Below are positions 1 to 49,259 of a stretch of DNA of 54,641 nt, piece by piece. Where the stretch lies: contig JBBIJY010000020.1 in assembly GCA_037445735.1 (NCBI GenBank), positions 1 through 54,641 on the forward strand, read 5' to 3'. Origin of the DNA: Armatimonadota bacterium (lineage in GTDB: Bacteria; Armatimonadota; Fimbriimonadia; Fimbriimonadales; GBS-DC). Within the stretch, counting starts at the first letter, position 1, and each line of letters starts with the position of its first letter. A program made the position numbers and the translations under genes. Below the pieces are notes generated by a model, which made no database searches, was not told where the DNA came from, and saw only the letters and a list, made by a program, of their open reading frames with translations.

Positions 1-925
1 TCCTCAATTCCGCTGGAGTGGTGCTTGTCCACACATACTCATTCTCCCCAATCGCGGGCACACCCAGCGGGTCAGGCTGAACCTGAATAACCAAACCACC
101 ATACGCCTCAGCAGAGGCGCGCACCGCCAGCGCGCCACACTCCACCCAAGAACCCCTTAACGATATGTTACCTGTCATTTCTTCCATATAACTAACTCGC
201 TCGCTCCGACCAAAACTCACCCACTTCGCACTGTAATCCCGCCTGCTACTGCAATCCGCTGGGTCACACCTGGGATCACTGTCCTCATCTGGTCCAGTAC
301 AGTCCATGCATTCAGTATTGCAGCTACATGAGGCGCTCGCACTCGACGAAACAGAAGCTGAAACCAGCGAGGTTTGAACCGATGCGGAAGCCTCTGCCGA
401 CGCCGAACTCGAATTACAACAACCATCTTCTTGGTAGCTGTTGGGTCCGCATTCCGCGTAAGTAAGTGCAGATGATTCTGCCCGCACTTTCTGCACAAAA
501 TATAAAAAACCCAGATCTCGCTTCGGGGTATAGGTATAGCCCTCTATCTGTAAGTTCGGATAAGGCGAAGTGAACGAAAAGGTCAGCAACGCTTTCAAAG
601 AAGCCCCCACGCTAAAGCTTTGACCACTGCAGAAGAGTGGAAATCCCCCTAAAGTAAGATAACTGGCGTCGAGGATAACGGTTCGGCTTCCTTGGCTTCC
701 GCAAAGAAAATCCCAAAATGGGCTGCAATACTGATTCCCATAGGGACATTGAGTCAGGCTCGAGTCCCCACACCCAAGGGCACAGTCTCCCGTTATCTGT
801 AAAGTGGCTTTTGTCTGGCAGCGAACTTCTTGCAGGCGCTGTGCCCAGCCACTAACCTCACCCGCCAAGCAAACCCCAGCAATGCTAGCCACTGTAACCG
901 CCTTCCACAGCCACCAGCAAACCAT
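1..925 (-). CDS. Cys-rich secreted hypothetical protein, 3' end beyond window (absent from the ORF track)
   Basis: Manual translation gives an open frame from ATG 925 (GGAGAGG upstream) to the window edge: MVCWWLWKAVTVASIAGVCLAGEVSGWAQRLQEVRCQTKATLQITGDCALGCGDSSLTQCPYGNQYCSPFWDFLCG...GCCNSSSASAEASASV...SCSCNTECMDC...NEYVWTSTTPAELR. It has a signal-peptide-like N-terminus and many Cys. Confidence 0.8.
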   Translation of the reverse strand, partial: MVCWWLWKAVTVASIAGVCLAGEVSGWAQRLQEVRCQTKATLQITGDCALGCGDSSLTQCPYGNQYCSPFWDFLCGSQGSRTVILDASYLTLGGFPLFCSGQSFSVGASLKALLTFSFTSPYPNLQIEGYTYTPKRDLGFLYFVQKVRAESSALTYAECGPNSYQEDGCCNSSSASAEASASVQTSLVSASVSSSASASCSCNTECMDCTGPDEDSDPRCDPADCSSRRDYSAKWVSFGRSERVSYMEEMTGNISLRGSWVECGALAVRASAEAYGGLVIQVQPDPLGVPAIGENEYVWTSTTPAELR

Positions 926-1020
926 GGCAGGATATCCTCTCCATGAGTGGAAGTTACCAATAGCTGTTTTTTTTCACCCGTCCGTTCAATCCTCATTGCC
1001 TTCATTGCTCCTCCTCAGTT

Positions 1021-1162
1021 TCCGATTGGTCTGGAATGCCCGCTTCAGGACATTCACCTGCCACTGTGCGGTTTACCGCTTGGGATTAGACGAGGCGGAC
1101 GGCTCTTTAGAACGCTGATTCGAAGGCAGACTGGATGGTTGCAGCAATTTCTCAAACTCCTC
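1021..1162. repeat. 142-bp direct repeat 'tail', copy 1 (partner-gene 3' end, intergenic DNA and 33-bp core)
   Basis: Matches 2712-2853 except for a few substitutions in the 33-bp core. Encodes the 29-aa tail EEFEKLLQPSSLPSNQRSKEPSASSNPKR. Confidence 0.97.
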
Positions 1163-2212
1163 ACCCCATTTGGTTGACTGAACCCTGTCTTCATCCCATC
1201 TGCCTGTCCAGACCTGAGAACCACAACGACGATAGTCAATCACGCGCGTATCTTTCGGAATCTCTAACTTGAGAGGTAAATCCGTAGGCTGCGCACTCAG
1301 CAGTATCGCTTTTGATTGAATCTCCTTATCACCTTTAACTATCCACTCCACTTCCGCAGGAAACCATACACTCCCTATTCGCCTGTACTTTAGCACGCGC
1401 CAGGTATAAATGGCACCATCGTCATATCGAACTTCAAGTCGCGATAAGGCATCCTGATAACGCCGATCGAGGTGGAACCGAATATAGGGAGCCAGAAATG
1501 ACGCTTTATTTCCTGACTCGCGTGGCAATTCAAAAACCCACTCCTCTGGGCTGACCGCAACGAGCCGCCAGTCTTCTGGTTTGCGCCCATATAACCGAAA
1601 CGGCGATACACCCGCATAAACAACTAACAGCTCTGGTGTAAGTGCCCCAAAAGGACTCCCTAATCCCAGCACATCAGTATCAGCCTGCGCTATGGAAACA
1701 CCATTGATCTGCCCATTCGAGGTATCTCGATAAATCTCAATCACCAGGTCATTCTGTAAATACGACTCATTTGCTGGCAGATCGACAACCTTTGCGTCAT
1801 CTAAGTCGATACCTTGCTCCTGAATATAAACATAGATTCCATGAGGAGCGCGCTTAATCGTGTAGTACTCGCAAAGATCAAAAACCATTTTGGATATACT
1901 CTCATCAACAAGAGCTTTGCTCAACACATCTTCAATTGGAATCATTTCTTCGGGTGAATCACTTTTTTGCGATGTATCATCTGCTTGCTCTGCCAGATCG
2001 AGGACATAGCGCGTTATAAAATTATTGAGTTTTCTTATATCTTCTACAGAATACCTGACCTGGCTATTTAATACCCACTTAAAAGTCATAACAGCAGCAA
2101 CACGCTCGCGAGCGTCGTAATAGGAAGGTTGTGGAGCGGTGCGTTCAAAGGACACACCACTCCACAATACCACACTAATCGATAGGTTTAGTGACAGCAA
2201 ACCGATGAGCAT
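1073..2212 (-). CDS. Exported partner protein B2 (paralog of 2764-3840), function unknown
   Basis: ORF 1073..2245; likely start is ATG 2212 after GGAGG. Hydrophobic N-terminus. Shares PSYYDxRERVAAV, GVSPFRLYG, YQDALSRLEV, TWRVLKY and WFPxEVE with B1. Confidence 0.85.
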   Translation of the reverse strand: MLIGLLSLNLSISVVLWSGVSFERTAPQPSYYDARERVAAVMTFKWVLNSQVRYSVEDIRKLNNFITRYVLDLAEQADDTSQKSDSPEEMIPIEDVLSKALVDESISKMVFDLCEYYTIKRAPHGIYVYIQEQGIDLDDAKVVDLPANESYLQNDLVIEIYRDTSNGQINGVSIAQADTDVLGLGSPFGALTPELLVVYAGVSPFRLYGRKPEDWRLVAVSPEEWVFELPRESGNKASFLAPYIRFHLDRRYQDALSRLEVRYDDGAIYTWRVLKYRRIGSVWFPAEVEWIVKGDKEIQSKAILLSAQPTDLPLKLEIPKDTRVIDYRRCGSQVWTGRWDEDRVQSTKWGEEFEKLLQPSSLPSNQRSKEPSASSNPKR

Positions 2213-2238
2213 GATAGACCTCCACGCGAGATTTGGCT

Positions 2239-2697
2239 CTAACAAGTGTATGCTGGAAGGCTCTTAAATTCTGGCCGATTTGGTCGTTGGAACTGACCAC
2301 AATCACAGCGCCCATCATTGTGAAACACGCAGGGAGCCTTCTTGTCTACTCTGACCTTGACGAAATTTAGCGTGGCTTCGCATCGCGAGTTCGGCTGCGG
2401 CTGGCAAGTGCGGAGCCTCTCCTCCACAATTTCGCCTATATAGCACTCTCCGCCGCAGTCGCCTCCAACATTAGCACAGAATCTAGCTGAATAATGTCGC
2501 TTCTGGTGATCATCTGGTGGGATCTCTGTGCATATATGGTCATTGTACACCTTCCTCTCCGGTATTGCAGGTGAAGGTATCATCAGTGCTGCTGGATCAA
2601 AGTCATTCTCTTGACCCATCACCTGGCTCGGTACAATCGTCAACAGCGCGATCACGGATGCGCTCACTGCGCTCATCCACAGCATCTGCCGTCTCAT
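2239..2697 (-). CDS. Secreted 10-Cys mini-protein A2
   Basis: ATG 2697 after GGAGGAGG. Leader MRRQMLWMSAVSASVIALLTIVPSQVMG/QEN. Ten Cys in the mature part, with Cys as the last residue. Confidence 0.88.
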   Translation of the reverse strand: MRRQMLWMSAVSASVIALLTIVPSQVMGQENDFDPAALMIPSPAIPERKVYNDHICTEIPPDDHQKRHYSARFCANVGGDCGGECYIGEIVEERLRTCQPQPNSRCEATLNFVKVRVDKKAPCVFHNDGRCDCGQFQRPNRPEFKSLPAYTC

Positions 2698-2744
2698 CGT
2701 TCCGTTCCTCCTCCGATTGGTCTGAGATGTCCGCTTCAGGACAT
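2605..2744. repeat. 140-bp direct repeat 'leader', copy 1 (core, RBS and 31 N-terminal codons)
   Basis: Identical to 4191-4330 by base-by-base reading. Confidence 0.97.
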
Positions 2745-2853
2745 TCACCTGCCACTGTGCGGTTTACCGCTTGGGATTAGACGAGGCGGACGGCTCTTTA
2801 GAACGCTGATTCGAAGGCAGACTGGATGGTTGCAGCAATTTCTCAAACTCCTC
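2712..2853. repeat. 142-bp direct repeat 'tail', copy 2
   Basis: Matches 1021-1162; overlaps the leader repeat by 33 bp (2712-2744). Confidence 0.97.
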
Positions 2854-3840
2854 GCTCCATTCGGTCTGCTTGTATCCTTTAGACGCTCCGTCCCAAACCT
2901 GCCGCCCAAGATGACGCCAGTCGCGCACATGCGTCTTTTCAGGAATCTGGAGCTCAACCGATTTCGTTCGCTCCGATCGCACCAGTACTGCGCGTGCCCA
3001 CCCCGCATAACCACGGCCGCCCTGCACTGTGAACTCCACTTCGGATGGAAACCAGATGCCTTCAATCCGCTTGTATTTCAGCACTCGCCAGGTCCAAACT
3101 TCCCCATCTGGATAGTGAACCTCCAACCGTGAGAGGGCATCCTGATAGTGGCGATTAAGGTGGAGGCGCGTTTTAGGAGCGTTCTCCTGGGATTGGTGCG
3201 AAAGTTCAAAGAGCCACTCTTCAGGGCTGACCGAAATAAGACGCCAATTCTCCGGTTTGAACCCGTACAATCGGAAGGGCGAAACACCACCGTAAACGAC
3301 CAACCATTCTGGTGGTAAACTGCCAAAAGGGCTCCCCATACCCAGCACATCATCCTCACCCTTGGCGATGTCAACGCTGGCAATCCGTCCACTTGAGTAA
3401 TCACGGTGAACCGCAATGACCGTACCACCGACGAAGTAGGTTTCTGTGGAAAGGAGAAAGTCAGTTGCTTTTGCCTGTTCCAGATGGACTCCCTGCCCTT
3501 GAGTGCGAAGACATGTTCGCTGCGGTGTGCGCTCAATGGTGTAGTACGCGGACAGTTCGAAGACTGCGTTAGCAACCTCTTCAGCAATCGGCTTTCCCGC
3601 TTCAGGAGGAGCATCAGACGATTGAGCGCGCTGGAGTTTCATCTCGTTAAGCGCTCGAACAAGCTGGGGGGGAACCTTGACCTGCTGGGTCTCCTGCCAC
3701 TCGAAGGTCAGCACGGCAGCGACACGCTCGCGAGTGTCGTAATAGGAGGGCTTTGCGGGAGGTTGCGCGATAATCAAGCGCCCACACAGCGCTCCGATAG
3801 CCACCAGCCACAGGCTTAGTTTCCAGCGTCTTTTGATCAT
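2764..3840 (-). CDS. Exported partner protein B1, function unknown
   Basis: ORF 2764..3861; likely start is ATG 3840 after GGAGAG. Signal peptide MIKRRWKLSLWLVAIGALCGRLIIA/Q. Clear paralog of B2. Confidence 0.87.
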   Translation of the reverse strand: MIKRRWKLSLWLVAIGALCGRLIIAQPPAKPSYYDTRERVAAVLTFEWQETQQVKVPPQLVRALNEMKLQRAQSSDAPPEAGKPIAEEVANAVFELSAYYTIERTPQRTCLRTQGQGVHLEQAKATDFLLSTETYFVGGTVIAVHRDYSSGRIASVDIAKGEDDVLGMGSPFGSLPPEWLVVYGGVSPFRLYGFKPENWRLISVSPEEWLFELSHQSQENAPKTRLHLNRHYQDALSRLEVHYPDGEVWTWRVLKYKRIEGIWFPSEVEFTVQGGRGYAGWARAVLVRSERTKSVELQIPEKTHVRDWRHLGRQVWDGASKGYKQTEWSEEFEKLLQPSSLPSNQRSKEPSASSNPKR

Positions 3841-3854
3841 CTCAAACTCTCCAT

Positions 3855-4283
3855 CTAACATTGTCTTATGTCAATTGTGGTGATGAAGATGGGAAAGGGT
3901 ATAGGTCTTCGCCGACCGCAGTCACAACCTGTACCCGACGGATCACGCACACAGTCAGCTTCCCATATTATCCACACCAAAGCAGTTCCCCAAGTGTATG
4001 TGCAAGATGTGCCGGGGTTAGGATAGCACTCACGATAATCCTGAAGAACAATACCACGCATGCAGTGCCCAGTACAGCCAACAGGCGTTGAACGACACAC
4101 CTCATCCTGAAACGGTGAACCCGCTGGTACTGTTTTACATATGTGGTCAGGCAAGGTTATCGGTCTTGCTGGGCTTGGGCGACCTTGAATATTCTCTTGA
4201 CCCATCACCTGGCTCGGTACAATCGTCAACAGCGCGATCACGGATGCGCTCACTGCGCTCATCCACAGCATCTGCCGTCTCAT
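3855..4283 (-). CDS. Secreted 10-Cys mini-protein A1
   Basis: ATG 4283 after GGAGGAGG. Same 31-aa leader as A2, ten Cys with near-identical spacing, and a terminal Cys. Confidence 0.88.
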   Translation of the reverse strand: MRRQMLWMSAVSASVIALLTIVPSQVMGQENIQGRPSPARPITLPDHICKTVPAGSPFQDEVCRSTPVGCTGHCMRGIVLQDYRECYPNPGTSCTYTWGTALVWIIWEADCVRDPSGTGCDCGRRRPIPFPIFITTIDIRQC

Positions 4284-4330
4284 CGTTCCGTTCCTCCTCC
4301 GATTGGTCTGAGATGTCCGCTTCAGGACAT
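4191..4330. repeat. 140-bp direct repeat 'leader', copy 2
   Basis: Identical to 2605-2744. Confidence 0.97.
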
Positions 4331-4339
4331 CCACTATTA

Positions 4340-4877
4340 TTAACGACGCAGGACGCCCTTTTGTTGCCAGCGATTCCGAAAAAACGCCCGCCCTAACGCC
4401 CCAATCCGACCCAGACAACCCTGCACTGTACCCACCGACACGCCGAGCCGCTTCGCTATCTCCCCATAACTGTAGCCCGCTTCGTACAGCTCCGCCACCT
4501 GCCGCAAATACGCTGGCAGCCCTGCAAGAAACTCGTCTAATGCGATACGCTCCACCAGCGCCTCTTCATCGTTCACCACAGCCAACCATTCACCCCCCCG
4601 TTGCATCATCTAATATCAGTATCTCATGTCGCTTACATGCTCGTTTGCGCAGATCGATCGCCAGCGAACGCAACTTGTGGCAGCACCAGCCGAGCGCCTG
4701 CCGATATTCGGCTTCATCCAGCTCGCGCTCCCACGGCAAACAGCCGAACCGCTGCCAGTACGCCAGCAAAGTGTCCTGCACCAGGTCGTCCGCCTCATCG
4801 GGGCAGGGGGTATAGCCGTGCGCTCTTTGCACAAGCCACCTGCGCCACTCTTCTTCCGTTCGCATCGGAGACGACAT
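4340..4877 (-). pseudogene. ECF-type sigma-70 factor split by a frameshift at a G7 tract (possibly phase-variable)
   Basis: Region-2 half 4877..4590 (EADDLVQDTLL; RBS GGAGGG) stops right after ACG GGG GGG TGA. The region-4 HTH half (LPAYLRQVAELYEAGYSYGEIAKRLGVSVGTVQ) continues in the next frame to 4340. G6 or G9 would give a protein of about 178 aa. Confidence 0.85.
4342..4368 (-). promoter_or_regulatory. Candidate ECF-sigma promoter for the cassette operon
   Basis: Minus strand GGCAAC-N17-CGTT(AATA), matching the AAC(-35)/CGT(-10) ECF pattern, just upstream of the first cassette core. Confidence 0.5.
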
Positions 4878-4932
4878 CGTTGCCCTCCGGTGGGGAGGAT
4901 ACGACGGATGGAATGAAATTCCTGCTGGTTTC

Positions 4933-6192
4933 CTATCGCGCGGTGCCTGCTGGCGCGGCGGAGGGCACAAATGGCTCTATCAGGTGCAGAGCCAGCTCCT
5001 TCATAAAGAAGTGGCAGTCGGTCACGATGGGGAAGGTCTGGTGCGTGCCGCGATCGGTGAGTTTGATCACGGTGTCAGCGTCATTATCCACGCAGAACAC
5101 GCGCACGCGGGCAGGCAACATGTTGCCCGTTGCGACCGAGTGGAGCGTGGTGGCGACCATAATCGCGACGCCCACGCCCGGAATATGCGCCCGCATGGCG
5201 TCCTGCGCCTCCAGCACATCGGTAATCACTTCGGGCAGGGGTCCGTCGTCGCGGATGCTGCCCGCCAGCACGAAGGGCACATTGTGCCGAACGCATTCGT
5301 ACATCACGCCTTTAGTGAGGATGCCCTGCTCGACGGCGGCGCGGATGCCGCCCGCCAGCCGAATGCGGTTGATGGCGCGGATGTGGTGCTGGTGCCCGTG
5401 TTTGACGGGCGCGCCCAGCTCCAGCGCGACGCCGAGCGAGGTGCCGTATAATGCGGCTTCGATATCGTGGGCTGCCAGCGCGTTGCCCGCGAACAGCACA
5501 TCGATCCAGCCGTTGCGGATGAGCTGTTCCAGATAGATGCCGGCGCCCGTGTGGATGATGGCGGGACCGCCCACGAACAGCACCTTTTCGCCGCGCGCTT
5601 TGGCTTTGCGCACCTCGTCGGCGACGCCGCGCACGGCACGCTCCTTCGGCTTCTCGGAGGAGACATCGCTGCCCATGAAGGCGAAGATGGAGGTGGGGTC
5701 GCGTCGTTCGGGCGGCGTGACGCGGATGCCCTCGTGCCCCACCACGATCAGGTCGCCCCTGCGCACGCGCGCCATCGGCACGGTCGCCGCCCGCCAGTGT
5801 GAACCCTCCTGCCACACCCGAATGCCGCAATCCATCTCGATGTTCTCCACCGGTATCCAGCGGTGATGCACCCGCACGAAGGTCTCCAGATTGGTGGTGG
5901 AGTAGAAGTCTTCGGGGAAGACGCCATCTTTGGGCGCGGGTTCGAGGCGGGCATCCTCATGAGAGAAGTTCGCGCCGTGCTGCTGCACCTCGGTCAGCAC
6001 CGCCTCCAGCTGCTCTTCGGTGTCCGCCTGAACCAGAATCTCGAACTGGCTGGTCTCGTCGCGCGTGTGCCCGATTCGAGCGTGCTGAATCTCGTACCGC
6101 ACGCCCGCGTAGGACGAGAGAATGTCCAGCACCTTGGACAGCGTGAGCGAATCGATGACATGACCTTCCAGATGCACGATTTCCGATGGCAT
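4933..6192 (-). CDS. TIGR00300-family LOR/SDH-like protein (ornithine cyclodeaminase-type, like the ArgZ/AgrE C-terminus)
   Basis: Motifs LEGHVIDS, FYSTTN, VSSEKPK, GPAIIHTG, GNALAAHDIE, LAGSIRDDGPLP, LHSVATGNMLP and KLTDRG. Confidence 0.85.
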   Translation of the reverse strand: MPSEIVHLEGHVIDSLTLSKVLDILSSYAGVRYEIQHARIGHTRDETSQFEILVQADTEEQLEAVLTEVQQHGANFSHEDARLEPAPKDGVFPEDFYSTTNLETFVRVHHRWIPVENIEMDCGIRVWQEGSHWRAATVPMARVRRGDLIVVGHEGIRVTPPERRDPTSIFAFMGSDVSSEKPKERAVRGVADEVRKAKARGEKVLFVGGPAIIHTGAGIYLEQLIRNGWIDVLFAGNALAAHDIEAALYGTSLGVALELGAPVKHGHQHHIRAINRIRLAGGIRAAVEQGILTKGVMYECVRHNVPFVLAGSIRDDGPLPEVITDVLEAQDAMRAHIPGVGVAIMVATTLHSVATGNMLPARVRVFCVDNDADTVIKLTDRGTHQTFPIVTDCHFFMKELALHLIEPFVPSAAPAGTAR

Positions 6193-6239
6193 CGTCTCCT
6201 CCCGCATGATTTTACCTGACGGCTGGGTATAATGGGTGC

Positions 6240-6400
6240 GACCAGTTGCTGCCCTGTGCCGCCTGGTCCAAAACCAACCACAAAGGGGGTGATAGGTGAT
6301 GAATAACCGTCACCGTACTGTGGAGGGGATGGCATTTTAGCCACCCGTAGACGGGTTGGCGATGCCGACTGACCCGTGGGGCGGAAGGTTAGCGACGCCC
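6240..6400 (+). ncRNA. ssrS: Probable 6S RNA
   Basis: GGGTATAAT at 6225-6233. Rod-like end-to-end pairing: GTTGCTG/TAGCGAC, CCGCCT/GGGCGG, GGTC/GACC, CCAACC/GGTTGG. A-rich unpaired segment and a CACCCG-TAGA-CGGGTT hairpin. No covariance search was run. Confidence 0.55.
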
Positions 6401-6493
6401 GCTACGGGGTTCGGCGATGAATGCATCCTCTCCGAGAGAACGCGCCGGGTGTGAACCCGGCGCACCCAAACTCTCACCTATGGGGGACAGAAT

Positions 6494-7315
6494 ATGGCAA
6501 GACAGTTGCTGAGTCAGGTGATGCACTGGTGGAACATCGCGAAGGAGCTGTCGCCGAAGCAGGTGGAGCGCGAGCTGTTGACGCCGTTCCGTATCGCGCT
6601 GGTGGGGCAGCCGGATCGGGTGGAAGCGGTATGGCGCGTGCTGACCAGCGGCGCCAGCCCGCAAACGCTACAGATCGCATCGGAGTATGTTCAGCGGCTC
6701 AACGCGCCGCCCACCGAAGAGTTCGACTTCATCCTGGGCTGTGATGCGCTGGAGGTGCCGCAGGACGCGATCGAAGCCATCGTGGAGCATTTCCAGAGGA
6801 ACGAGTTCCCGCTGGTCGCGCTGGCGCGGGTGCTGCCCGGCACGCGCGAGATGGTGGTCAATCGCATCGTGGAGGAGGTCGCCTCGCTGAACGCGGGGCT
6901 GGCGATGTTGTCGGCGGTGCCGTCGGTGGTTCCGTTACTGGGTCTGCTCGCGCCGCCTGCCGCCGTCGCCGATATGGTGGTGCTGACCAAGAATCAGCTG
7001 CTGATGGTGTTGCGCGTGGCGGCGGCGTATGGTAAGGCGCCCGACTGGCGCAGGCGGTTGCCAGAGCTGGCGAGCGTGCTGGGCGCGGCGTTCGGCTGGC
7101 GAGCCGTCGCGCGGGAGCTGGTCGGCTTCGTGCCCGGCGGCGTCGGCATGGTCATCAAGGGCATGGTCGCCTATGCGGGCACGCTCACCGTCGGACGCGC
7201 CGCCGCATGGTACTACGCCACCGGGCGCGCGCCCGGCAGAGCCGAGCGCGAGCGGCTCTATCAGCAGGCGTGGGAGGAAGCCCGCGAGCGAAGCCAGGAC
7301 TGGAACCGACCGTGA
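6494..7315 (+). CDS. DUF697/YcjF-like protein
   Basis: ADMVVLTKNQLLMVLRVAAAYG...FGWRAVARELVGFVPGG...VAYAGT...GRAA pattern. Confidence 0.65.
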   Translation: MARQLLSQVMHWWNIAKELSPKQVERELLTPFRIALVGQPDRVEAVWRVLTSGASPQTLQIASEYVQRLNAPPTEEFDFILGCDALEVPQDAIEAIVEHFQRNEFPLVALARVLPGTREMVVNRIVEEVASLNAGLAMLSAVPSVVPLLGLLAPPAAVADMVVLTKNQLLMVLRVAAAYGKAPDWRRRLPELASVLGAAFGWRAVARELVGFVPGGVGMVIKGMVAYAGTLTVGRAAAWYYATGRAPGRAERERLYQQAWEEARERSQDWNRP

Positions 7316-10254
7316 GGGCGTGGGTGGTCGCGTGGCTGTTGAGCGGGCTGGGCGTGCTGACGCCTGCCGTCTGCCAGCAGGTGATGGTGCGCCCGGACCC
7401 CAATGCGCCCCTTGTCGCCCTCGAAATCTGGGTTCGGACAGGCAGCGCGAACGAGACCCGCGAGACTTCCGGCGCCGCGCACCTGCTGGAGCATCTTATC
7501 TTCAAAGGCACAGCCCGACACGCGCCGGGCGTGCTGGACGACACCATTGAATCGGCGGGCGGCATTCTGGAAGCCACCACCGAGCGCGACTGGACACGCT
7601 ATCGCGCGGCGGTGCTGCCCGACCGCTGGGAGCCGTGCCTGCGCATGCTGCTGCACCATCTGCTTCAGCCTGCTCTGCCCGAAGCCGAGCTGGAGCGCGA
7701 GCGCGCGATTATCTTGCAGGACGAATACGCGCTCCATCGGGCAGACCCGATTCGCACGGCACGCTACGCGCTCTATGAGAAGGCGTATGGCGAGCATCCC
7801 TACGCCCTGCCGCCGCTGGGCATTCCCGACACGCTGGCGAAGCTCACGCGCGAGCAGGTGCTGGCGTTCCATGCCCGCCACTATCGCCCCGAACGGATGG
7901 TGATTGTGGTGGTGGGGCGCGTGGAGCCAGCGCGCGTGCAGGCGGTGGTGCAGGAGGAAATCAGCAAGCCCCTCTCCCCCACTGGGGGAGAGGGTACGGG
8001 TGAGGGGGCTGTCTATCCTGTATCTGTGATCAACCCCTCACCCCAACCCTCTCCCCAGAGGGGAGAGGGAGCTAATCAGTCCCTCTCCCCCAGAAGGGGA
8101 GAGGGCGAACGAGCCTCTGAACCCCTCTCCCCCACTGGGGGAGAGGGTACGGGTGAGGGGGCTGATTTTCCTGCCGAGCTGATAGAACCCCTCACCCCAA
8201 CCCTCTCCCCAGAGGGGAGAGGGGGTTCAGATTCCCTCTCCCCCGCGTGCGGGGAAGAGGGTACGGGTGAGGGGGTAGAAGTTCAGCAGTCGGGCTGGCT
8301 GGCGCTGGGGGTCAAGGCGCCGCCCGCGAACCCGCCCGACGCGATGCTCGCAGCAGAGGTGGTGCGCCTCGCACTGGCGGAACCCTATCTCGGATTGCTC
8401 TATCAACCGCTGAATCACAGGCAGGATGCCCGTGCTACGGATACCCGCAACTGGCAGGGCGTGCCCTTTGTCTACCTGCAAAGCGAGTATATGCCCCGCC
8501 CGATTCAATCGCTGATGCTCTTCTTTTTCCAGCTGCCGCCCGATTCAGGCGATGAAGGCGTGCAGAAGCTGCGCGCGCACTGGCACGCATGCGTGCGCCA
8601 GATTGTTGAGGGCAGGGCGCGCTGGCAACTGGAGCGTGCAAAGGGATGGCTGATTGCCCGCCATCAGCAGGCGATGGCGAACCCGCTGGAGCGTGCGCGG
8701 CTGTACGCGCTTTACGCTACACTGGGGCTGCCCACCTTGCCCGATGAGTACCTTCCGCGCCTGCAATCGCTCTCTGTGGAGCAGATTGAGCAGGTGGCAC
8801 GCGGGATGCTGAACCCTTCCCTCACACTGGGGGAGAGGGAGTTCAAAAAGCCCCTCGCCCCCGCTGGGGGAGAGGGCGAACGAGTCTCTGAACCCCTCTC
8901 CCCCGCGTGCGGGGGAGAGGGTACGGGTGAGGGGGCACGGGGTGAGGAGACGGTCTATCGGCAGGTGCTGGCGAACGGCATGCGGGTGATTGCCCTGCGG
9001 CAGTCGGGCGCGAGGCAGGTGGTGATGCAGCTGCTGGTCGCTACAGGGCTGGACGCCGAGCGCGACTTCCCTGCAGGCACAGGCGAGCTGACCGCGCGCA
9101 TGCTGTTCACCGCCACCCACAACGAGACGCAGGCGACGATGGCGATGCGAATCGCACGCTCTGGCGGCGCACTGACGCTGAGCTGGGAGCCTGTGGGCGT
9201 GCGCATTCTTGCCGTCGCCGAGCCAGCCGCGCTGGAGAATGTGCTATCCCTGTTGCGGGAGGGGCTGACTCGCGCGGTGTTCGAGCCAGAAAGCTTGCGC
9301 CACGCGCTGCAGCTCGCCATTGCCGAACGCCAGCGCACCGACGGCACGCACGAGTTCTATCTCTATGACCAGCTGTTGCGCCAGCTGAACGGCGCGAGCG
9401 GTCTGTACGCGACCGCTGAGCAGCTCCAGCGCGTGCGACTGGAGCATATTCGCGCCTTCTATCGCCTTTATTACCGCCCTGAACGGTTCGTGTTTGTGAT
9501 TGCAGGCGATCTGCCCGTGGAGCGCCTGACGGAGCTGGTACAGCGGTACTTCGGCACGCTGGAGGGGACTCCCTCACCCCCTGCCCCCTCTCCCACGCTG
9601 TGGGAGAGGGGGTTCAGAAAGCCCCTCTCCCCCGCTGGGGGAGAGGGCGAACGAGTCTCTGAACCCCTCTCCCCCGCACGCGGGGGAGAGGGTACGGGTG
9701 AGAGGGCGTTTTATCCTGCTCCCCTGCACGCGGGTGCGAGAGTAGCAGTTGCTGCCTGTGGGGGCGGGGCGACGCTCTATCTGGGGTTCGGGCTGCGCGT
9801 GCAGGTGCGCACGCCTGCCGACTATGCCGTGCTGATGGTGTTGCACGCGCTGCTGTGCGAGGGCAAAGGCTCCGCGCTCTTTCAGCAGATGCGTCAGGCG
9901 CGGGGCGTCGGCTATGCGTTCGGCGGCGCGCCCCTCATGTGGCATGGCGACGGGCTGCTGCTGGGCTTCCTGCAGGTGGGCGCGAGCCGTGCCAGCCAGC
10001 AGCAAGAGCTGTTGAACGCGCTGCAGACGCTGGCGACGCTCAAAGAGATCGACCCGAACGCCTTTCGGCGGGCGGTCGCACTGGCGGAGGGGCGCTGGCG
10101 GCTTGCCCGCCTCGATATCGTTGAGCGCACGCGCCGACTCGCCCTCGCTGAAGTTAGCGGGGTCGGGTATCATGCGGAGGAGCAGCTGCCCGACTGGCTC
10201 CAGAAACTGGATCGGGCAAGCGTGCTGACCGACGCCTCGCAGGGCGCACCGTGA
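7312..10254 (+). CDS. M16 (pitrilysin) family zinc peptidase, two fused units, with in-frame palindromic repeat inserts
   Basis: GAAHLLEHLIFKG (HxxEH) and HYRPERMVIVVVG. The second unit (LANGMRV...YYRPERFVFVIAGD) lacks HxxEH. GTG 7312 overlaps the upstream stop. Confidence 0.9.
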   Translation: MRAWVVAWLLSGLGVLTPAVCQQVMVRPDPNAPLVALEIWVRTGSANETRETSGAAHLLEHLIFKGTARHAPGVLDDTIESAGGILEATTERDWTRYRAAVLPDRWEPCLRMLLHHLLQPALPEAELERERAIILQDEYALHRADPIRTARYALYEKAYGEHPYALPPLGIPDTLAKLTREQVLAFHARHYRPERMVIVVVGRVEPARVQAVVQEEISKPLSPTGGEGTGEGAVYPVSVINPSPQPSPQRGEGANQSLSPRRGEGERASEPLSPTGGEGTGEGADFPAELIEPLTPTLSPEGRGGSDSLSPACGEEGTGEGVEVQQSGWLALGVKAPPANPPDAMLAAEVVRLALAEPYLGLLYQPLNHRQDARATDTRNWQGVPFVYLQSEYMPRPIQSLMLFFFQLPPDSGDEGVQKLRAHWHACVRQIVEGRARWQLERAKGWLIARHQQAMANPLERARLYALYATLGLPTLPDEYLPRLQSLSVEQIEQVARGMLNPSLTLGEREFKKPLAPAGGEGERVSEPLSPACGGEGTGEGARGEETVYRQVLANGMRVIALRQSGARQVVMQLLVATGLDAERDFPAGTGELTARMLFTATHNETQATMAMRIARSGGALTLSWEPVGVRILAVAEPAALENVLSLLREGLTRAVFEPESLRHALQLAIAERQRTDGTHEFYLYDQLLRQLNGASGLYATAEQLQRVRLEHIRAFYRLYYRPERFVFVIAGDLPVERLTELVQRYFGTLEGTPSPPAPSPTLWERGFRKPLSPAGGEGERVSEPLSPARGGEGTGERAFYPAPLHAGARVAVAACGGGATLYLGFGLRVQVRTPADYAVLMVLHALLCEGKGSALFQQMRQARGVGYAFGGAPLMWHGDGLLLGFLQVGASRASQQQELLNALQTLATLKEIDPNAFRRAVALAEGRWRLARLDIVERTRRLALAEVSGVGYHAEEQLPDWLQKLDRASVLTDASQGAP
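7966..8276. repeat. Palindromic CCCTCTCCCC..GGGGAGAGGG repeat cluster, in frame in the M16 peptidase
   Basis: Several hairpins translated as PLSPTGGEGTGEG, PSPQPSPQRGEG and PLTPTLSPEGRG. Confidence 0.92.
8812..8936. repeat. Palindromic repeat cluster, in frame in the M16 peptidase
   Basis: Encodes KPLAPAGGEGERVSEPLSPACGGEGTGEG; near-identical to 9619-9707 and intergenic 12049-12136. Confidence 0.92.
9571..9707. repeat. Palindromic repeat cluster, in frame in the M16 peptidase
   Basis: Encodes PSPPAPSPTLWERGFRKPLSPAGGEGERVSEPLSPARGGEGTGE. Confidence 0.92.
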
Positions 10255-10308
10255 GCCGTGCCCCGGCACAGGTTCCAGCATGCCCCGATACGGGATGGTT
10301 GAACGCAA

Positions 10309-12021
10309 ATGGGACACACAGCAACGACCCTCGTGGAGACGATCCTGCTGGTAATCGGCGTCAGCATACTGGTGGTGGCGCTGTTCCAGCGGTTGCGCGT
10401 GCCTGCAATAGTGGGGTTTATCCTGACGGGCGTGCTGATCGGTCCGCACGGGCTGGGCTGGGTCACGGAGGCGGAGACCATCCAGCTGCTGGCGGAGATG
10501 GGTGTGGTGCTGCTGCTCTTTTCGCTGGGGGTGGAGTTCTCCATCGAGCGGCTGATCCAGTTGCGCCACTATGTGTTGCGGGCGGGGCTGGCGCAGGTCG
10601 CGCTCACGATTGCCCTCTGCACGCTGGGCGCGCTCCTGCTGGGCTATGCGTTCGCGCAGGCGCTCGCGCTGGGCATGATTATCAGCCTCAGCAGCACGGC
10701 GGTCGGCGTGAAACTGCTCAAGCAGCGCGAGGAGCTGGACAGCACGCATGGGCGGATGGCGGTCGGCGTGTTGCTGTTGCAGGATGTGATGGCGCCGCTG
10801 TTTATGGCGATGCTGCCCTTTCTGGCGAAGACGGGTTCGCTCAGCGCGACGGCGATTGCGGGGCGGATGGCGCTGATTCTGCTGGGCGTGCTGGCAGTCT
10901 ATTTGATGGCGCGGGCGCTGGTGCCGCTCGTGTTGCGCTGGCTGATGGCGTCCGACACGCGCGAGCTGCCCGTGCTGGGTTCGCTCTTTATCGCGCTGCT
11001 GATGAGCTTCATCACGCAGCGGCTGGGGCTGTCGCCCGCGCTCGGCGCGTTCGTGGCGGGCATCATCATCGCGGAGACGCCCTATAGCCATCAGATTACC
11101 GCCAATATCGTGCCGTTCCGTGACAGTTTCCTCGCCCTCTTCTTCATCTCGGTGGGGCTGCTGGTGAACCTGCCTCACCTGATGCGGAGCGGCTGGCAGA
11201 TTATCGGCTGGACGGTGCTGTTGCTGCTGCTCAAATGGGCAATTGTGGTGCTGGTGGCGTATTTTTCGCGGCGTCCGTTGCGCGTCGGGCTGATTGCAGG
11301 CGCCCTGCTGGCGAACATCGGCGAGTTCTCCTTCGTGCTGATTGATCAGGCGCAGACGCTGTTGCCCGCCGAGCTGGTTCAGGGGCTGATTGTGGGCACC
11401 TCGCTCAGCATCCTGCTCACGCCCATCCTGCTGGCGGCGACCTATCGCCTCACGCTGTACGCCACAGGGCACTTCGAGCTGATTGAACGCATCGGACGGC
11501 ACCCGGAGCCACCGCTGAAAGACCATGTGATTATTGTGGGCTACGGGCTGAACGGGCGCAATCTGGCGAATGTGTTGCGCGAGCTGGATGTGCCCTTCGT
11601 GGTGGTGGAGCTGAACGGTGCGCTGGTGCGCGAGGCACAGAAGCAGGGCATCCCGGTGGTGTACGGCGACGCGGCGAACCCCGACATCCTGAAAGCGGCG
11701 GGCATCCGTCAGGCGCGGGCGGTCGTGCTGGCGATGTCCGACCCCATCAGCACGCGCTATGCGGTGCGCACCGCCCGCGAGCTGAACCCGACGGTCTATC
11801 TGGTCGCCCGCACGCGGTACCTGACGGAGATTGAGCCGCTCTATGCAGCAGGCGCGACCGATGTGATCCCCGAAGAGTTTGAGGCGTTCGTGGAGATTGC
11901 CGACCGCATCATGCAGATGCTGGGCGTGGACGAGTCGGCGCGTCAGGAGGTGATCCACGCCTGCCGCGCCCGCCACTACAAAATGCTCCAAGAAACCCGC
12001 GAAGGGCTGTTCGCGAATTAA
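10309..12021 (+). CDS. CPA2/KefC-type cation:proton antiporter with C-terminal TrkA-N domain
   Basis: Many TM segments; GVLLLQD, LGAFVAG, FFISVG and IGEFSFV; C-terminal HVIIVGYGLNG...YGDA. Confidence 0.92.
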   Translation: MGHTATTLVETILLVIGVSILVVALFQRLRVPAIVGFILTGVLIGPHGLGWVTEAETIQLLAEMGVVLLLFSLGVEFSIERLIQLRHYVLRAGLAQVALTIALCTLGALLLGYAFAQALALGMIISLSSTAVGVKLLKQREELDSTHGRMAVGVLLLQDVMAPLFMAMLPFLAKTGSLSATAIAGRMALILLGVLAVYLMARALVPLVLRWLMASDTRELPVLGSLFIALLMSFITQRLGLSPALGAFVAGIIIAETPYSHQITANIVPFRDSFLALFFISVGLLVNLPHLMRSGWQIIGWTVLLLLLKWAIVVLVAYFSRRPLRVGLIAGALLANIGEFSFVLIDQAQTLLPAELVQGLIVGTSLSILLTPILLAATYRLTLYATGHFELIERIGRHPEPPLKDHVIIVGYGLNGRNLANVLRELDVPFVVVELNGALVREAQKQGIPVVYGDAANPDILKAAGIRQARAVVLAMSDPISTRYAVRTARELNPTVYLVARTRYLTEIEPLYAAGATDVIPEEFEAFVEIADRIMQMLGVDESARQEVIHACRARHYKMLQETREGLFAN

Positions 12022-47559: not shown

Positions 47560-49259
47560 TTAGCGCCAATACCATCTTATCATGCTATTGTACGGACCGA
47601 ACCCTGTCTCTGGCTGCTGCAAACTGGGGGTGTATTCCTTAGTGGCGCCAGCGTTCCTTGCACGCTCGTATCGCATTTCACCAGTGACAGGATTGTAGGT
47701 TGCTGTGCCGTTAAAGTTGATTTTCCAGCCGCCTGAAAACACGCAACCCTTTCTGATCGAACACATACGCATTACCTGTCCAGTAGTTCCACCAATACGC
47801 TCGCGTGTTCGTAGAGCGAACCCTTGCATTCAGTGGCCAAAGATAAGTGTTGTCCGGCACCCACCAGACCCATGTAGGACCCCAGCCGTTACTCCAGTCC
47901 CCTCCATGCTCCTGAACCACTACCTGTCCCATCTTTATCGAGAAACCTGCCATCTGCAGCACAGGAAGGAGCTCTATCGTTCCCCATATTGGGTCCACAC
48001 GCGGATACTGAGTCTGGCGTTGAGTTCTCTGGTGGGTGTACTCGTAAGGAAGCGTTTGACCTTTCACAGCCACACAAACAATCTGGGCGGGATACTGGGC
48101 ACCTGCACGGAGATAATCACAGGGCTGAATTTGCTCAGGTGTCCAGTTGGGATCCGCCAGCCCCTTATTTTCGCCCTCCTGAATATACTCGCGCAACGGC
48201 ACATACATCGACATCGGGCTACCTAACCGCACCGCCAAACCCACATGCACCCACATCGATGCGGAGCCTCGGCGACCCGCGCTGTCCGTCACCTCTACCC
48301 GAACCAGATACCGATACAACTGCTTGTAAAAGTAGTGAACTGTATCCGAGGCTGTGTCGCGCTGACGCTCCACCACCTTGGTCGGATCATCGCCAAAGGT
48401 CCATTTATAAGTAAAAGGCGGTGTGGGATGGTTTTCTCCATCGCACTCCATGTCCACCGTTGCCGTCAGCGTAATGGTCTGCCATACCCCGGCTGGCTCG
48501 GGAGCTCCCTCTAAAGAGACTGCCAGTTCATCAGGGCGCTTCACGCGCGCAAAGGCGTAGGCAGTCGCCTCTCCACACACAACCTCCGTGCCGTCCGGCA
48601 ACCGCCCATAAGCTTTGACTGTGCAACTGATCCGAAAGCGTTTGCCCGCGTGCGCCGCTGTGAATAAGAATCCACCTTCGGGCCATCGCGCCCCGCCTTC
48701 TTCAGGACCCCGTTCCGTCACCCACCTATCACCCTCTTGCCGCTCAATCTTCCAGGTATAGGTTAGACGACTGACTTCGGGTGGATTTTCACAGTCTCCT
48801 GGCGGGTCGCCCGGTGGATAACCCGGTGGCCACGGTTTACCTGGATCGCCAGGTGGATTTGGCGGCCTGGGCGGCTGCGGCGGGTAGGGATAGGGCGGGT
48901 CGTTTGGATCTTCTGGCGGCGGATCGCCCGGTTTCTGGGGTGGTGGAACAGGTGAGGGGTCGCCTCCCTCTTCACCTGGCTTATCTCCGGGTTCCGGAGC
49001 TACCATTTTCATAAATTGTGGCTCAGGGCAGTCGCAGTCGGCGTCAGCAATGCATTCCCAGGTGACCCGCTTGCCAGGACAGACGACGATGCTTTGAGGT
49101 TTAATGCGGGCAATGACATCCGCACCGGCAAAGGCAACGAAGCAGAAGGGGATTAAAGCAAGAAGGCGACCGCTATTCCATCCCCCCCCCCGCTGGGTTA
49201 GAGTGGGTTGGAAGGGTTTGTTTCATCTGGCTGCCCGATTTTATCTTTGTGCCGAACAT
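47560..49259 (-). pseudogene. Secreted Cys/Pro-rich protein with PKD/Ig-like domains, out of frame at a G10 tract and again near 47745
   Basis: The frame of ORF 47711..49012 stays open upstream through a signal h-region (RLLALIPFCFVAFAGA) with no start codon. The ATGs at 49259 and 49226 are one frame off across G10 (49182-49191). PKD-like FTYKWTFGDD...VRVEVTDSAG. A plausible C-terminus continues in frame 47560..47829. Confidence 0.75.

Follow-up and report, generated by a model that had tools for sequence, protein, structure and literature searches.

What kind of locus sets a split sigma factor gene ahead of tandem pairs of secreted proteins whose ends are nearly identical and whose interiors are strongly diverged? 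The question is raised by contig JBBIJY010000020.1 of an Armatimonadota bacterium (assembly GCA_037445735.1), which is 54,641 nucleotides (nt) long, is referred to here as the window, and is contig C20 of a 59-contig, 2.78-Mb metagenome bin with 62% G+C. The locus is an island at the left end of the contig, with all its elements on the minus strand of positions 1 to 4970, where a broken sigma gene of the extracytoplasmic function (ECF) type is followed by A2, B2, A1, B1, and C, the last of which runs off the contig edge. A and B denote the two members of each cassette, a secreted mini-protein with 10 cysteines and its larger partner, and C denotes a large Cys-rich secreted open reading frame (ORF). 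This layout of two A-B cassettes with intergenic cores and a large Cys-rich ORF had been proposed in the initial annotation, and every element of it was located on the minus strand. The island is also AT-rich as claimed, with a G+C content of 0.42 to 0.58 in 500-nt windows within positions 1 to 4750, compared with 0.62 to 0.71 in positions 5000 to 12000 and a genome mean of about 0.62, and an ordinary housekeeping-type gene adjoins it at approximately position 4940. Such a layout, in which a sigma gene breakable at a run of G residues precedes swappable secreted pairs, seems to be undescribed. The checks suggested in the initial annotation, as far as they were run, favored its interpretation, which is supported. 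The reading that we favor, on which belief and doubt are evenly balanced, is that of a lineage-restricted contingency locus in which a switchable sigma factor would control recombining secreted A-B cassettes with an effector/immunity-like role.

The sigma gene is present as two halves. The N-terminal (sigma2) half occupies positions 4590 to 4970 and matches Pfam Sigma70_r2 with 29 bits (cutoff, 24), and the C-terminal (sigma4) half occupies positions 4340 to 4609 and matches Sigma70_r4_2 with 35.5 bits (cutoff, 25.7), which bears out the frameshifted ECF sigma of the initial annotation, with a +1 offset at a run of seven G residues (G7) at positions 4593 to 4599. This homopolymer lies in the linker between sigma2 and sigma4 and is a candidate slipped-strand switch; the sigma2 frame, which likely starts with the ATG at position 4877, stops at a TGA directly 3' of the run, the sigma4 frame is +1 relative to it, and a single sigma frame would need G6 or G9. 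The ortholog in G395, a genome of the same family but another genus, is intact, with one frame across the linker. The gene has the two-domain build of ECF group IV factors, consisting of sigma2 and sigma4 only. In searches with TIGR02937 (sigma70-ECF; cutoff, 42.9), the sigma proteins of G395 (52.6) and of loci L027 (46.8) and L041 (43.9) pass, and the paralog on contig C3 of the same genome (37.9) and that of L038 (29.1) fall below the cutoff. A co-encoded anti-sigma factor is typical of the ECF family, although not universal; Pfam and NCBIfam searches of A, B, and C gave no anti-sigma domain, and A and B show nothing beyond signal-like N termini. Weak PADLOC matches of the sigma protein to mad1 and CARF (E values, 3e-4 and 5e-4) were taken as helix-turn-helix noise.

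A G run is found at the same linker site in four lineages, a subclade sharing the linker motif, and its length varies among them. The window has G7, out of frame, and G395 has GGGTGG, in frame; L017 and L018, which come from different records, both have G8 and are out of frame. L026 is broken with G7 and L027 is intact with G8, and the two are otherwise identical over 630 aligned nt. Two hallmarks of contingency loci are hence present, namely, a homopolymer of at least 7 nt in the coding or start region that sets the frame and a length polymorphism of this run between otherwise identical sequences, and the claim of a switchable sigma gains from the fact that the candidate run takes both in-frame and out-of-frame lengths in the near-identical L026 and L027. 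Contigs from two other sequencing runs (X2 and X3, introduced below) are each one base short in the G run, that of X2 being also substituted inside it. Among 15 clusters of sigma homologs in the database, 10 are full length and 5 are truncated or disrupted, with a query coverage of 40 to 46% or 24%; three of the five defective clusters start with MH(G/R)GGEW at the tract, and the other two are scrambled away from it. The full-length clusters include the in-frame G8 form (46 member sequences; 23 contigs). Homopolymers also occur at other positions of related loci, with G10 runs located 2 nt before the sigma ATG in L038 and L041 and a G8 run located 4 nt before it in L043, and L038 and L043 continue from sigma to A and B. 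In the genome of the window itself, paralogous loci carry a G10 run in the 5' part of sigma (contig C44), a G10 run at the sigma end and C gene start (contig C3), and a run of 11 C residues between a leader ORF and a Cys-rich ORF after sigma (contig C7), and no tract is found at the linker site in the paralogs that carry runs elsewhere. If a mutable switch were under selection, runs would be expected to recur in this way at varied positions. It is probable that the reading frame of this ECF-type sigma is controlled by slipped-strand mispairing in the poly-G run.

The genome contains 20 G/C runs of at least 8 nt, the longest being 15 and 17 nt, located on contigs C1, C13, C17, C18, C27, C28, C30, C57, C59, and others. 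Many of these are placed early in large ORFs, within 70 codons of the start, or immediately upstream, frequently after a GCGC or GCAC context, and their distribution suggests that poly-G phase variation is widespread in this organism. Within the window, a run of 10 C residues (49182 to 49191) falls at approximately codon 10 of a 503-amino-acid stop-to-stop frame on the minus strand (47711 to 49222) with a PKD domain, which is probably another contingency gene. In L045 (contig C13, 62.4 to 65.6 kb), a G9 run stands just before the ATG of a LuxR-type helix-turn-helix protein, which is followed by a membrane protein, a 153-amino-acid Cys-rich A-like protein, and a distant B-like protein (E value with the B profile, 9e-8), presenting the same theme with a different regulator. 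In L038 (Armatimonadetes JP3_11), the whole unit of upstream element, G run, sigma, A, and B is seemingly repeated in tandem, and the upstream element recurs 3' of B with a G8 run (760 to 830 and 3240 to 3320).

The sigma gene is followed by two cassettes. A2 (3855 to 4283) encodes a secreted 10-Cys mini-protein of 142 amino acids, approximately 113 of them in the mature form, and B2 (2764 to 3861) encodes a 365-amino-acid protein with an N-terminal hydrophobic anchor or signal and a predicted LolA-superfamily fold; the A2 and B2 coding regions overlap by 7 nt or lie 14 nt apart, depending on the choice of the B2 start. A1 (2239 to 2697) encodes a secreted 10-Cys mini-protein of 152 amino acids, and B1 (1073 to 2245) encodes 390 amino acids from a TTG, with a likely start at the ATG at position 2212. 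The leader repeat, comprising a core, a ribosome-binding site, and A signal-peptide codons, is found at positions 2605 to 2748 (copy 1) and 4191 to 4334 (copy 2), and its 144 nt, which include the 37-nt core and the first 31 A codons, are 99% identical between copies. The tail repeat, comprising the last 29 B codons, the intergenic stretch, and a core, is found at positions 1021 to 1174 (copy 1, with core copy 1 at 1021 to 1057 ahead of C) and 2712 to 2865 (copy 2, with core copy 2), and its 154 nt are 96% identical. Core copy 3, ahead of A2 (4298 to 4334), carries an 8-bp stem-loop and is 89% identical over 37 nt to the copy ahead of C. The repeats that had been reported are real, with sizes of 144, 154, and 37 nt instead of the claimed 140, 142, and 33 nt. 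In the aligned cassettes, identity is 0.93 to 1.00 in the flanks and drops within approximately 60 nt to 0.27 to 0.47 in A and 0.23 to 0.75 in B, which agrees with the described contrast of near-identical ends and diverged interiors, and these sharp flank edges are a mosaic pattern, with no gradient of constraint. A run of seven C residues (3666 to 3672) inside B2 is in frame at present.

The number of cassettes differs among close relatives, which have two, one, or none. G395 possesses a syntenic locus with 90 to 94% nucleotide identity, in which a single cassette of the A1-B1 type directly follows sigma. Four sequencing runs of one study (X1 to X4) were compared as contigs on positions 1 to 5200, and X1, the probable source run, matches the window. 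In X3, a join from 2708 to 4292 (depth, 547) leaves one cassette, matching the arrangement of G395, and in X2 and X4, a join from 1054 to 4333 leaves no cassette, with sigma meeting C; the flanking identity of these variant contigs is 96 to 99%. These joins are located in the leader repeat and the core, where recombination between repeats would place them, and the proposed check of cassette content across relatives yielded varied content with joins exactly at the repeats. The design of constant flanks and variable interiors recurs independently in two metagenome loci, namely, L019, whose two cassettes share a leader of 235 nt (98%) and a tail of 94 nt (94%), and L033, in which 117 nt (99%) lie upstream and 92 nt (100%) downstream of each unit; the interiors of both show approximately 67 to 68% identity over alignable stretches. 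The A2-B2 pair is closest to the pairs of L017 and L038 (A, 62 to 73%; B, 57 to 67%) and the A1-B1 pair is closest to that of G395 (A, 89%; B, 85%), but the two neighboring pairs share only 29% (A) and 51% (B) identity, and the two cassettes of the locus appear from these identities to be different, old types. The tandem order rests on short-read assembly, and the coverage of the junction in X1 argues that it is real, as the junction of the B2 tail and A1 leader shares only approximately 14 nt with the alternative paths, such that its presence in 31-mer contigs would favor a true tandem. Taken together, we are highly confident in the array architecture and its recombination dynamics.

The linkage of A and B, which the initial annotation had proposed to examine with profiles, was counted with a clean A profile and a B profile over all loci, with the near-duplicates L017/L018 and L026/L027 counted separately. 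B lies directly downstream of A in 20 of 21 A genes, and the exception, on contig C40, is an A gene followed by a frameshifted B-like ORF. Of the 32 B genes that were examined, 4 have upstream stretches too short for a call, and the 28 assessable ones divide into 18 with an A gene upstream and 10 without one. B without A (10 of 28) is common and A without B is nearly absent, which is the pattern expected of orphan immunity genes. The linkage to sigma, also proposed for examination, was found in many loci, in the form of an ECF-type sigma that adjoins the pair. In loci lacking A, its place is taken by an A-type signal peptide fused to B (L026/L027 and L023) or, in L021, by a different secreted protein. 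Candidate A-B fusions in L023, L024, L026, and L027 were rejected, as their sequences show leader-B fusions without an A domain.

A structural model of the complex supports the binding of A2 to B2. For B2 residues 36 to 348 with mature A2, the interaction prediction score from aligned errors (ipSAE) is 0.88 (0.89, 0.86, and 0.88 in the individual runs), compared with 0.35 for the best control, with 113 to 127 contacts, of which at least 82% are common to the runs, and a partner predicted local distance difference test (pLDDT) score of 82. In calibration, 58 of 80 solved complexes attained this score mark, as did 2 of 110 mismatched pairs, counts that apply only roughly, since the model was computed with alignments made for this analysis. 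B1 and B2 are identical at 18 of 52 positions of the modeled interface, compared with 144 of 261 elsewhere (Fisher p = 0.009), and across the family, the frequency of the top residue of B is 0.39 at the interface and 0.58 elsewhere. The pairwise identities of A and B over 15 pairs are correlated (Spearman, 0.64), a value reached by 1 of 2,000 label permutations in a test that is inflated by relatedness. The pairs are predicted to be cognate, as had been suggested, because the A-contacting residues of B are its most variable ones and because A and B diverge together. Overall, binding between A and B is likely on the strength of these models.

A1 and A2 share an identical 31-residue signal-peptide-like N terminus, with signal peptides in A called by eye, and 10 invariant Cys residues, and their mature parts are 29% identical; B1 and B2 are about 51 to 52% identical and share the same last 29 residues. 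The AlphaFold2 model of mature A2, based on a 15-row alignment, consists entirely of long beta-hairpins (pLDDT, 91.4; predicted template modeling [pTM] score, 0.72), and a Foldseek search of the PDB found no match (best E value, 0.8), nor did the ESM Atlas contain anything similar. The model thus presents A as a putative five-disulfide protein with a previously unseen all-beta fold. The A2 sequence retrieved only two relatives in a word-index search, and an exhaustive profile search of 1.84 billion representatives yielded 41 clusters, 39 of which are 123 to 195 amino acids long. The B model (pLDDT, 85.8; pTM, 0.79) has the unclosed beta-barrel with lid of the LolA fold (Foldseek probability, 0.99 to 1.00; E values up to 1e-3; TM score, 0.38 to 0.54). 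Its top Foldseek matches, down to an E value of about 1e-4, all belong to the LolA superfamily (E values, 9e-8 to 1e-4; target TM score, 0.43 to 0.54), and the matches include LolA3 and LolB of P. gingivalis, 3bk5, 3buu, a DUF1329 protein, and classical LolA. At the sequence level, none of the LolA, LolB, and RseB families of Pfam and NCBIfam matched B at an E value of ≤1, and none of the families in Pfam, NCBIfam, and PADLOC fits A, B, or C. B homologs form 27 clusters in a collection of 5.8 billion proteins, with source names of Armatimonadota/Fimbriimonadales, and are present in 5 of the 401 genomes sampled from the phylum, including that of the window. A single-sequence scan of the collection of genome contigs with B2 gave no match, and the alignment-based repeat, covering 185,579 species genomes, gave six loci, five labeled Armatimonadota/Armatimonadetes or "Bacterium HR15" and one labeled Acidobacteria. 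The A/B family is confined to a small clade of Armatimonadota.

On the reading that we favor, the linker run would gain or lose a G by slipped-strand mispairing, with G7 in the window being the OFF state, and the sigma factor, which lacks a co-encoded anti-sigma factor, would be controlled at its own reading frame. In the ON state, it may drive transcription of the array behind it, with an ECF-type promoter located in the 3' end of the sigma gene. This array would be composed of zero to two or more cassettes followed by the Cys-rich HExxH protein C, with A as a Sec-exported protein of approximately 110 residues and B as an exported or membrane-anchored LolA-fold protein encoded closely behind it. 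B is predicted to clasp A in its concave face, forming a cognate extracytoplasmic complex, and the near-identical leader and tail/core flanks would allow homologous recombination to add, delete, and swap whole cassettes. In its biological role, A may be a polymorphic secreted effector and B an immunity-like or neutralizing partner in competition, with the ON/OFF sigma hedging the cost or exposure of the effector. This role is suggested by the fast evolution of A, the codivergence of B with its variable interface, the frequent orphan B genes and near absence of orphan A genes, the strain-variable arrays, and an RHS protein near the C paralog on contig C3, and we put it forward tentatively; the initial annotation had left the choice among toxin/immunity, ligand/receptor, and cargo/chaperone pairs. 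The analysis thus shows the anatomy, the strain variants, the polymorphism of the tract, the predicted folds, and the linkage, from which switching within a population, the promoter, physical binding, and the role are inferred.

A broader and still more speculative proposal is that homopolymer-switched ECF sigmas each drive a private recombining library of secreted heterodimers, which would constitute a new class of contingency system. It would comprise at least four clear A-B loci in the 2.8-Mb genome together with related sigma-linked Cys-rich loci, and the heterodimer would combine a new five-disulfide beta fold with a LolA-like clasp, as modeled. If true, an extracellular function outside the known toxin, adhesin, and signaling families would be under stochastic, combinatorial control. 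If the favored reading holds, sigma factors would join DNA methyltransferases as regulators switched at random via simple repeats, and the concept of the phasevarion would come to include transcription initiation and an environmental phylum that is uncultured and has hardly been studied. Two protein families without known relatives are a further yield of the locus, one with a confidently predicted fold absent from the PDB, and its cassettes form a natural series of predicted cognate pairs for studying how specificity diversifies and how constant flanks promote exchange.

Several observations weigh against this reading. With respect to the switch, the lengths of the run come from contigs, which drop minority variants; a run of G7 is rather short for slippage to be efficient; the runs of two close relatives are interrupted and nonslippery; and every member found of the L017-like group (L017, L018, and P0079 to P0081) is out of frame, so that this always-broken sublineage also fits a stable split or decay. 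The strain of the window has a further frame change in sigma, at a run of six T residues (T6), and a frame offset at the start of C. With respect to pairing, A and B have been reassorted, as the A protein of contig C44 is 41% identical to A2 and its B protein is 23% identical to B2, and between L029 and L033a, the B proteins share 63% identity and the A proteins 25%. Frameshifted A or B genes also occur elsewhere (the second B of L019, the A of L022, and the B-like ORF of contig C40), and the depth in X1 is uneven, with 21.9 for cassette 1 (1133 to 2634), 15.8 for cassette 2 (2824 to 4220), and 13.4 to 14.3 for the flanks, where the excess for cassette 1 may reflect an extra copy or a coresident strain. 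With respect to the role, searches for A, B, and C recovered neither a toxin domain nor a secretion system nor any known family, and B, with 340 to 390 amino acids, is larger than typical immunity proteins.

The same architecture may serve another purpose, and a carrier or surface model, although doubtful, is nearly as good an account as the effector/immunity-like role. A would then be a surface or structural protein of variable type (for example, an adhesin, a hydrophobin-like coat, or a phage-receptor decoy) and B a dedicated LolA-like periplasmic carrier or chaperone that shields A and delivers it to the outer membrane, with phase variation and cassette exchange serving surface variation and not antagonism. 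The fold of B is that of periplasmic carriers, in the modeled interface a strongly hydrophobic, aromatic stretch of A2 is buried in the concave face of B, the close spacing of the A and B genes suggests 1:1 production, and the other long poly-G runs, which mark the 5' ends of large ORFs, including one with a PKD domain, are typical of surface contingency genes. However, 10 of the 28 assessable B genes have no A, and it is difficult to see why a dedicated carrier would persist without its cargo; L026/L027 have the A-type signal peptide joined directly to B, the surface of A1 equivalent to the hydrophobic stretch of A2 is charged, and no lipobox or sorting signal was recognized in A by eye.

An unlikely alternative to the proposed switch is decay, in which the sigma and C-start frameshifts are ordinary inactivating mutations in a degenerating, horizontally acquired island. 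It is consistent with the two sigma frame changes (G7 and T6) and C-start offset of the window, with the loss of the N-terminal third of C in G395, with the broken A or B genes in L019, L022, L036, and contig C40, and with the sigma remnants in G395, L021, and contig C47. Against it, both sigma halves are otherwise intact and score above the Pfam cutoffs, the homopolymer holds the disabling change in all tract-clade cases for which DNA was read, and the in-frame and out-of-frame forms are one G apart in otherwise identical DNA. Homopolymers also recur at regulator/first-gene boundaries, at unrelated positions, in paralogs and distant loci, which points to selection for mutability, and the T6 run alters only a tail that L026/L027 do without.

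It is very improbable that the frameshift is bypassed, either by programmed ribosomal or transcriptional slippage on the G run or by sigma2 and sigma4 acting as a two-piece sigma. Two-subunit sigma factors do exist, as exemplified by SigO-RsoA of Bacillus subtilis, in the window and the L017 lineage an ATG-ATG immediately ahead of the run opens the sigma4 frame, and all L017-like sequences are split with both halves conserved. Yet 10 of the 15 homolog clusters are single in-frame genes, the sigma4 frame of L026 has no start near the run, and no ribosome-binding site is evident before the ATG-ATG. Moreover, the relation of frame to run length is not constant between lineages, being out of frame with G7 and in frame with G8 in L026/L027 but out of frame with G8 in L017, which does not allow a fixed programmed shift. 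Least probable of all is an artifact in which G7 and T6 are homopolymer sequencing errors and the tandem is a chimeric assembly of two one-cassette strains, which would suit a 59-contig metagenome bin, the co-occurrence of related strains with other cassette contents in the same study, and the unequal X1 depths (21.9 for cassette 1 and 15.8 for cassette 2) as a hint of mixture, but the independent X1 contig set has 0 differences across the sigma region with all 30 bins covered, the junction coverage in 31-mer contigs argues for a real tandem join, two-cassette arrays of the same design were assembled independently in L019 and L033, and L017 and L018 share G8 in different records.

Compared with known systems, the locus would combine the workings of a phase-variable contingency locus with those of a polymorphic effector-partner array. 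As in the poly-G/C contingency loci of Campylobacter, Helicobacter, and Neisseria, a G/C run in or ahead of the coding region sets the frame, and in-frame and out-of-frame alleles are found in near-identical DNA, here in an environmental Armatimonadota bacterium. As in phasevarions, the switched gene is a regulator, such that a whole gene set would follow it; however, a DNA methyltransferase is switched in phasevarions and an ECF-type sigma would be switched here. A full-text literature search found no description of a homopolymer-switched ECF sigma, which is no proof of absence in print. The mucA22-type frameshifts in the AlgU pathway of Pseudomonas aeruginosa, which occur at a G5 run in the anti-sigma gene and are essentially one-way and adaptive, likewise alter the activity of an ECF sigma regulon by a single-base change in a short G run, but here the run lies in or just before the sigma gene itself and recurs across paralogs and lineages. 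With the orphan cdiA-CT/cdiI modules of contact-dependent inhibition, Rhs systems, and bacteriocin-immunity pairs, the locus shares a fast-evolving exported protein followed by a codiverging partner, here a predicted binder, and with polymorphic toxin arrays it shares constant flanks, tandem arrays, strain-variable content, and orphan partners. The variable exported protein with a partner directly downstream, characteristic of polymorphic toxins, is found for 20 of the 21 A genes, but the characteristic toxin domain is not, as A has no Pfam, NCBIfam, or PADLOC family or PDB fold. No delivery domain or dedicated secretion system was recognized here either, A is a complete small Sec-type protein and not the C-terminal tip of a large one, and B is large (340 to 390 amino acids), better conserved than A, and of LolA fold. 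B shares its predicted fold with the LolA/LolB/RseB superfamily and, like RseB/MucB, is encoded beside an ECF sigma gene. In contrast to LolA, it is approximately 130 residues longer, with an extra helical N-terminal part and no sequence-family match; the predicted ligand is a folded disulfide-rich protein and not a lipid tail or an anti-sigma domain, and unlike the situation with RseB/MucB, no anti-sigma factor was detected at this locus by Pfam and NCBIfam searches of A, B, and C.

A candidate ECF-type promoter, GGCAAC-N17-CGTTAA, lies inside the sigma 3' end at positions 4341 to 4368. ECF target promoters typically have AAC in the -35 element and CGT in the -10 element, and the motif GGCAAC-N17-CGTTA(A/C) is kept at the sigma 3' end in three lineages (window/G395, L017/L018, and L026/L027), with different spacers and with the CGTTAC part being noncoding in L026/L027. 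The ECF-like promoter of the initial annotation is a candidate only, as the genome-wide frequency of the motif is that of chance (8 occurrences compared with 6 to 12 in shuffled sequences) and its first half overlaps conserved codons, both of which count against its part in the proposed switch. Three lineages retain the 8-bp stem of the core stem-loop, two of its pairs having changed on both strands of the stem, which is weak evidence; the local 76-nt fold is no better than those of shuffled sequences (z = -0.38), and the exact core hairpin motif is found only in the window and G395. Both promoter and hairpin are best regarded as leads. An Rfam search of positions 1 to 5300 gave no match.

Near the sigma 3' end, the T6 run (4379 to 4384) is T5 in all relatives, the contigs of X2, X3, and X4 each being one base short at position 4379. 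The extra T exchanges the long acidic C-terminal tail of sigma for a short one, and this tail is absent altogether in L026/L027. The leader repeat is also open in the ancestral frame of the acidic sigma tail (minus strand, 4147 to 4392 and 2603 to 2776), and this alternative frame overlaps the A signal-peptide codons and matches the sigma tails of G395, L017, and contig C7.

The C gene (2 to 1005) is cut by the contig end and has its body frame at positions 2 to 925; the upstream ATG at position 1005 is out of frame with the body, across a run of eight A residues at positions 967 to 974. By our own count, five A residues and an extra base at position 926 bring the start of C into frame in the X2 contigs, and the paralog on contig C3 has a G10 run at the place equivalent to the run of eight. 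This paralog encodes 688 amino acids, is 64% identical to C, contains an HExxH motif, and follows an intact sigma paralog; it has no Pfam family and no PDB sequence match, and the ESM Atlas gave nothing for its C-terminal part. In the locus concerned (L001; contig C3, 120.8 to 126.3 kb), the intact 213-amino-acid sigma with an acidic tail and the C paralog are followed by a 342-amino-acid protein without a known family and an RHS-repeat protein with a Cys-rich C terminus. Pfam found nothing for the 342-amino-acid neighbor or for the Cys-rich proteins of contig C7 and L041, and PADLOC found nothing for the neighbor. In G395 (L015), the sigma ORF is fused upstream to the remnant of region 4 of another sigma (2545 to 2900), the C gene (5248 to 6783) lacks the part matching positions 477 to 927 of the window, and the C-type genes are each followed by a gene for a 336- to 409-amino-acid protein resembling the 342-amino-acid neighbor on contig C3.

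A second kind of pair, consisting of a 240- to 330-amino-acid Cys-rich protein and a 320- to 350-amino-acid protein, is found in L044 (contig C34), L004 (positions 1 to 2231; contig C7), L042, and L019. These pairs were considered as distant A-B homologs, but profile comparison yielded only a short shared C-terminal motif (E values, 0.013, 0.14, and 0.092), which does not demonstrate homology. The pair is a single fused ORF in L042 (12 to 1343), and the L019 copy lies at positions 9019 to 9618. The second-kind pairs adjoin sigma genes, and a run of nine A residues is found at the sigma 3' end, at the same place in contig C34 and L019.

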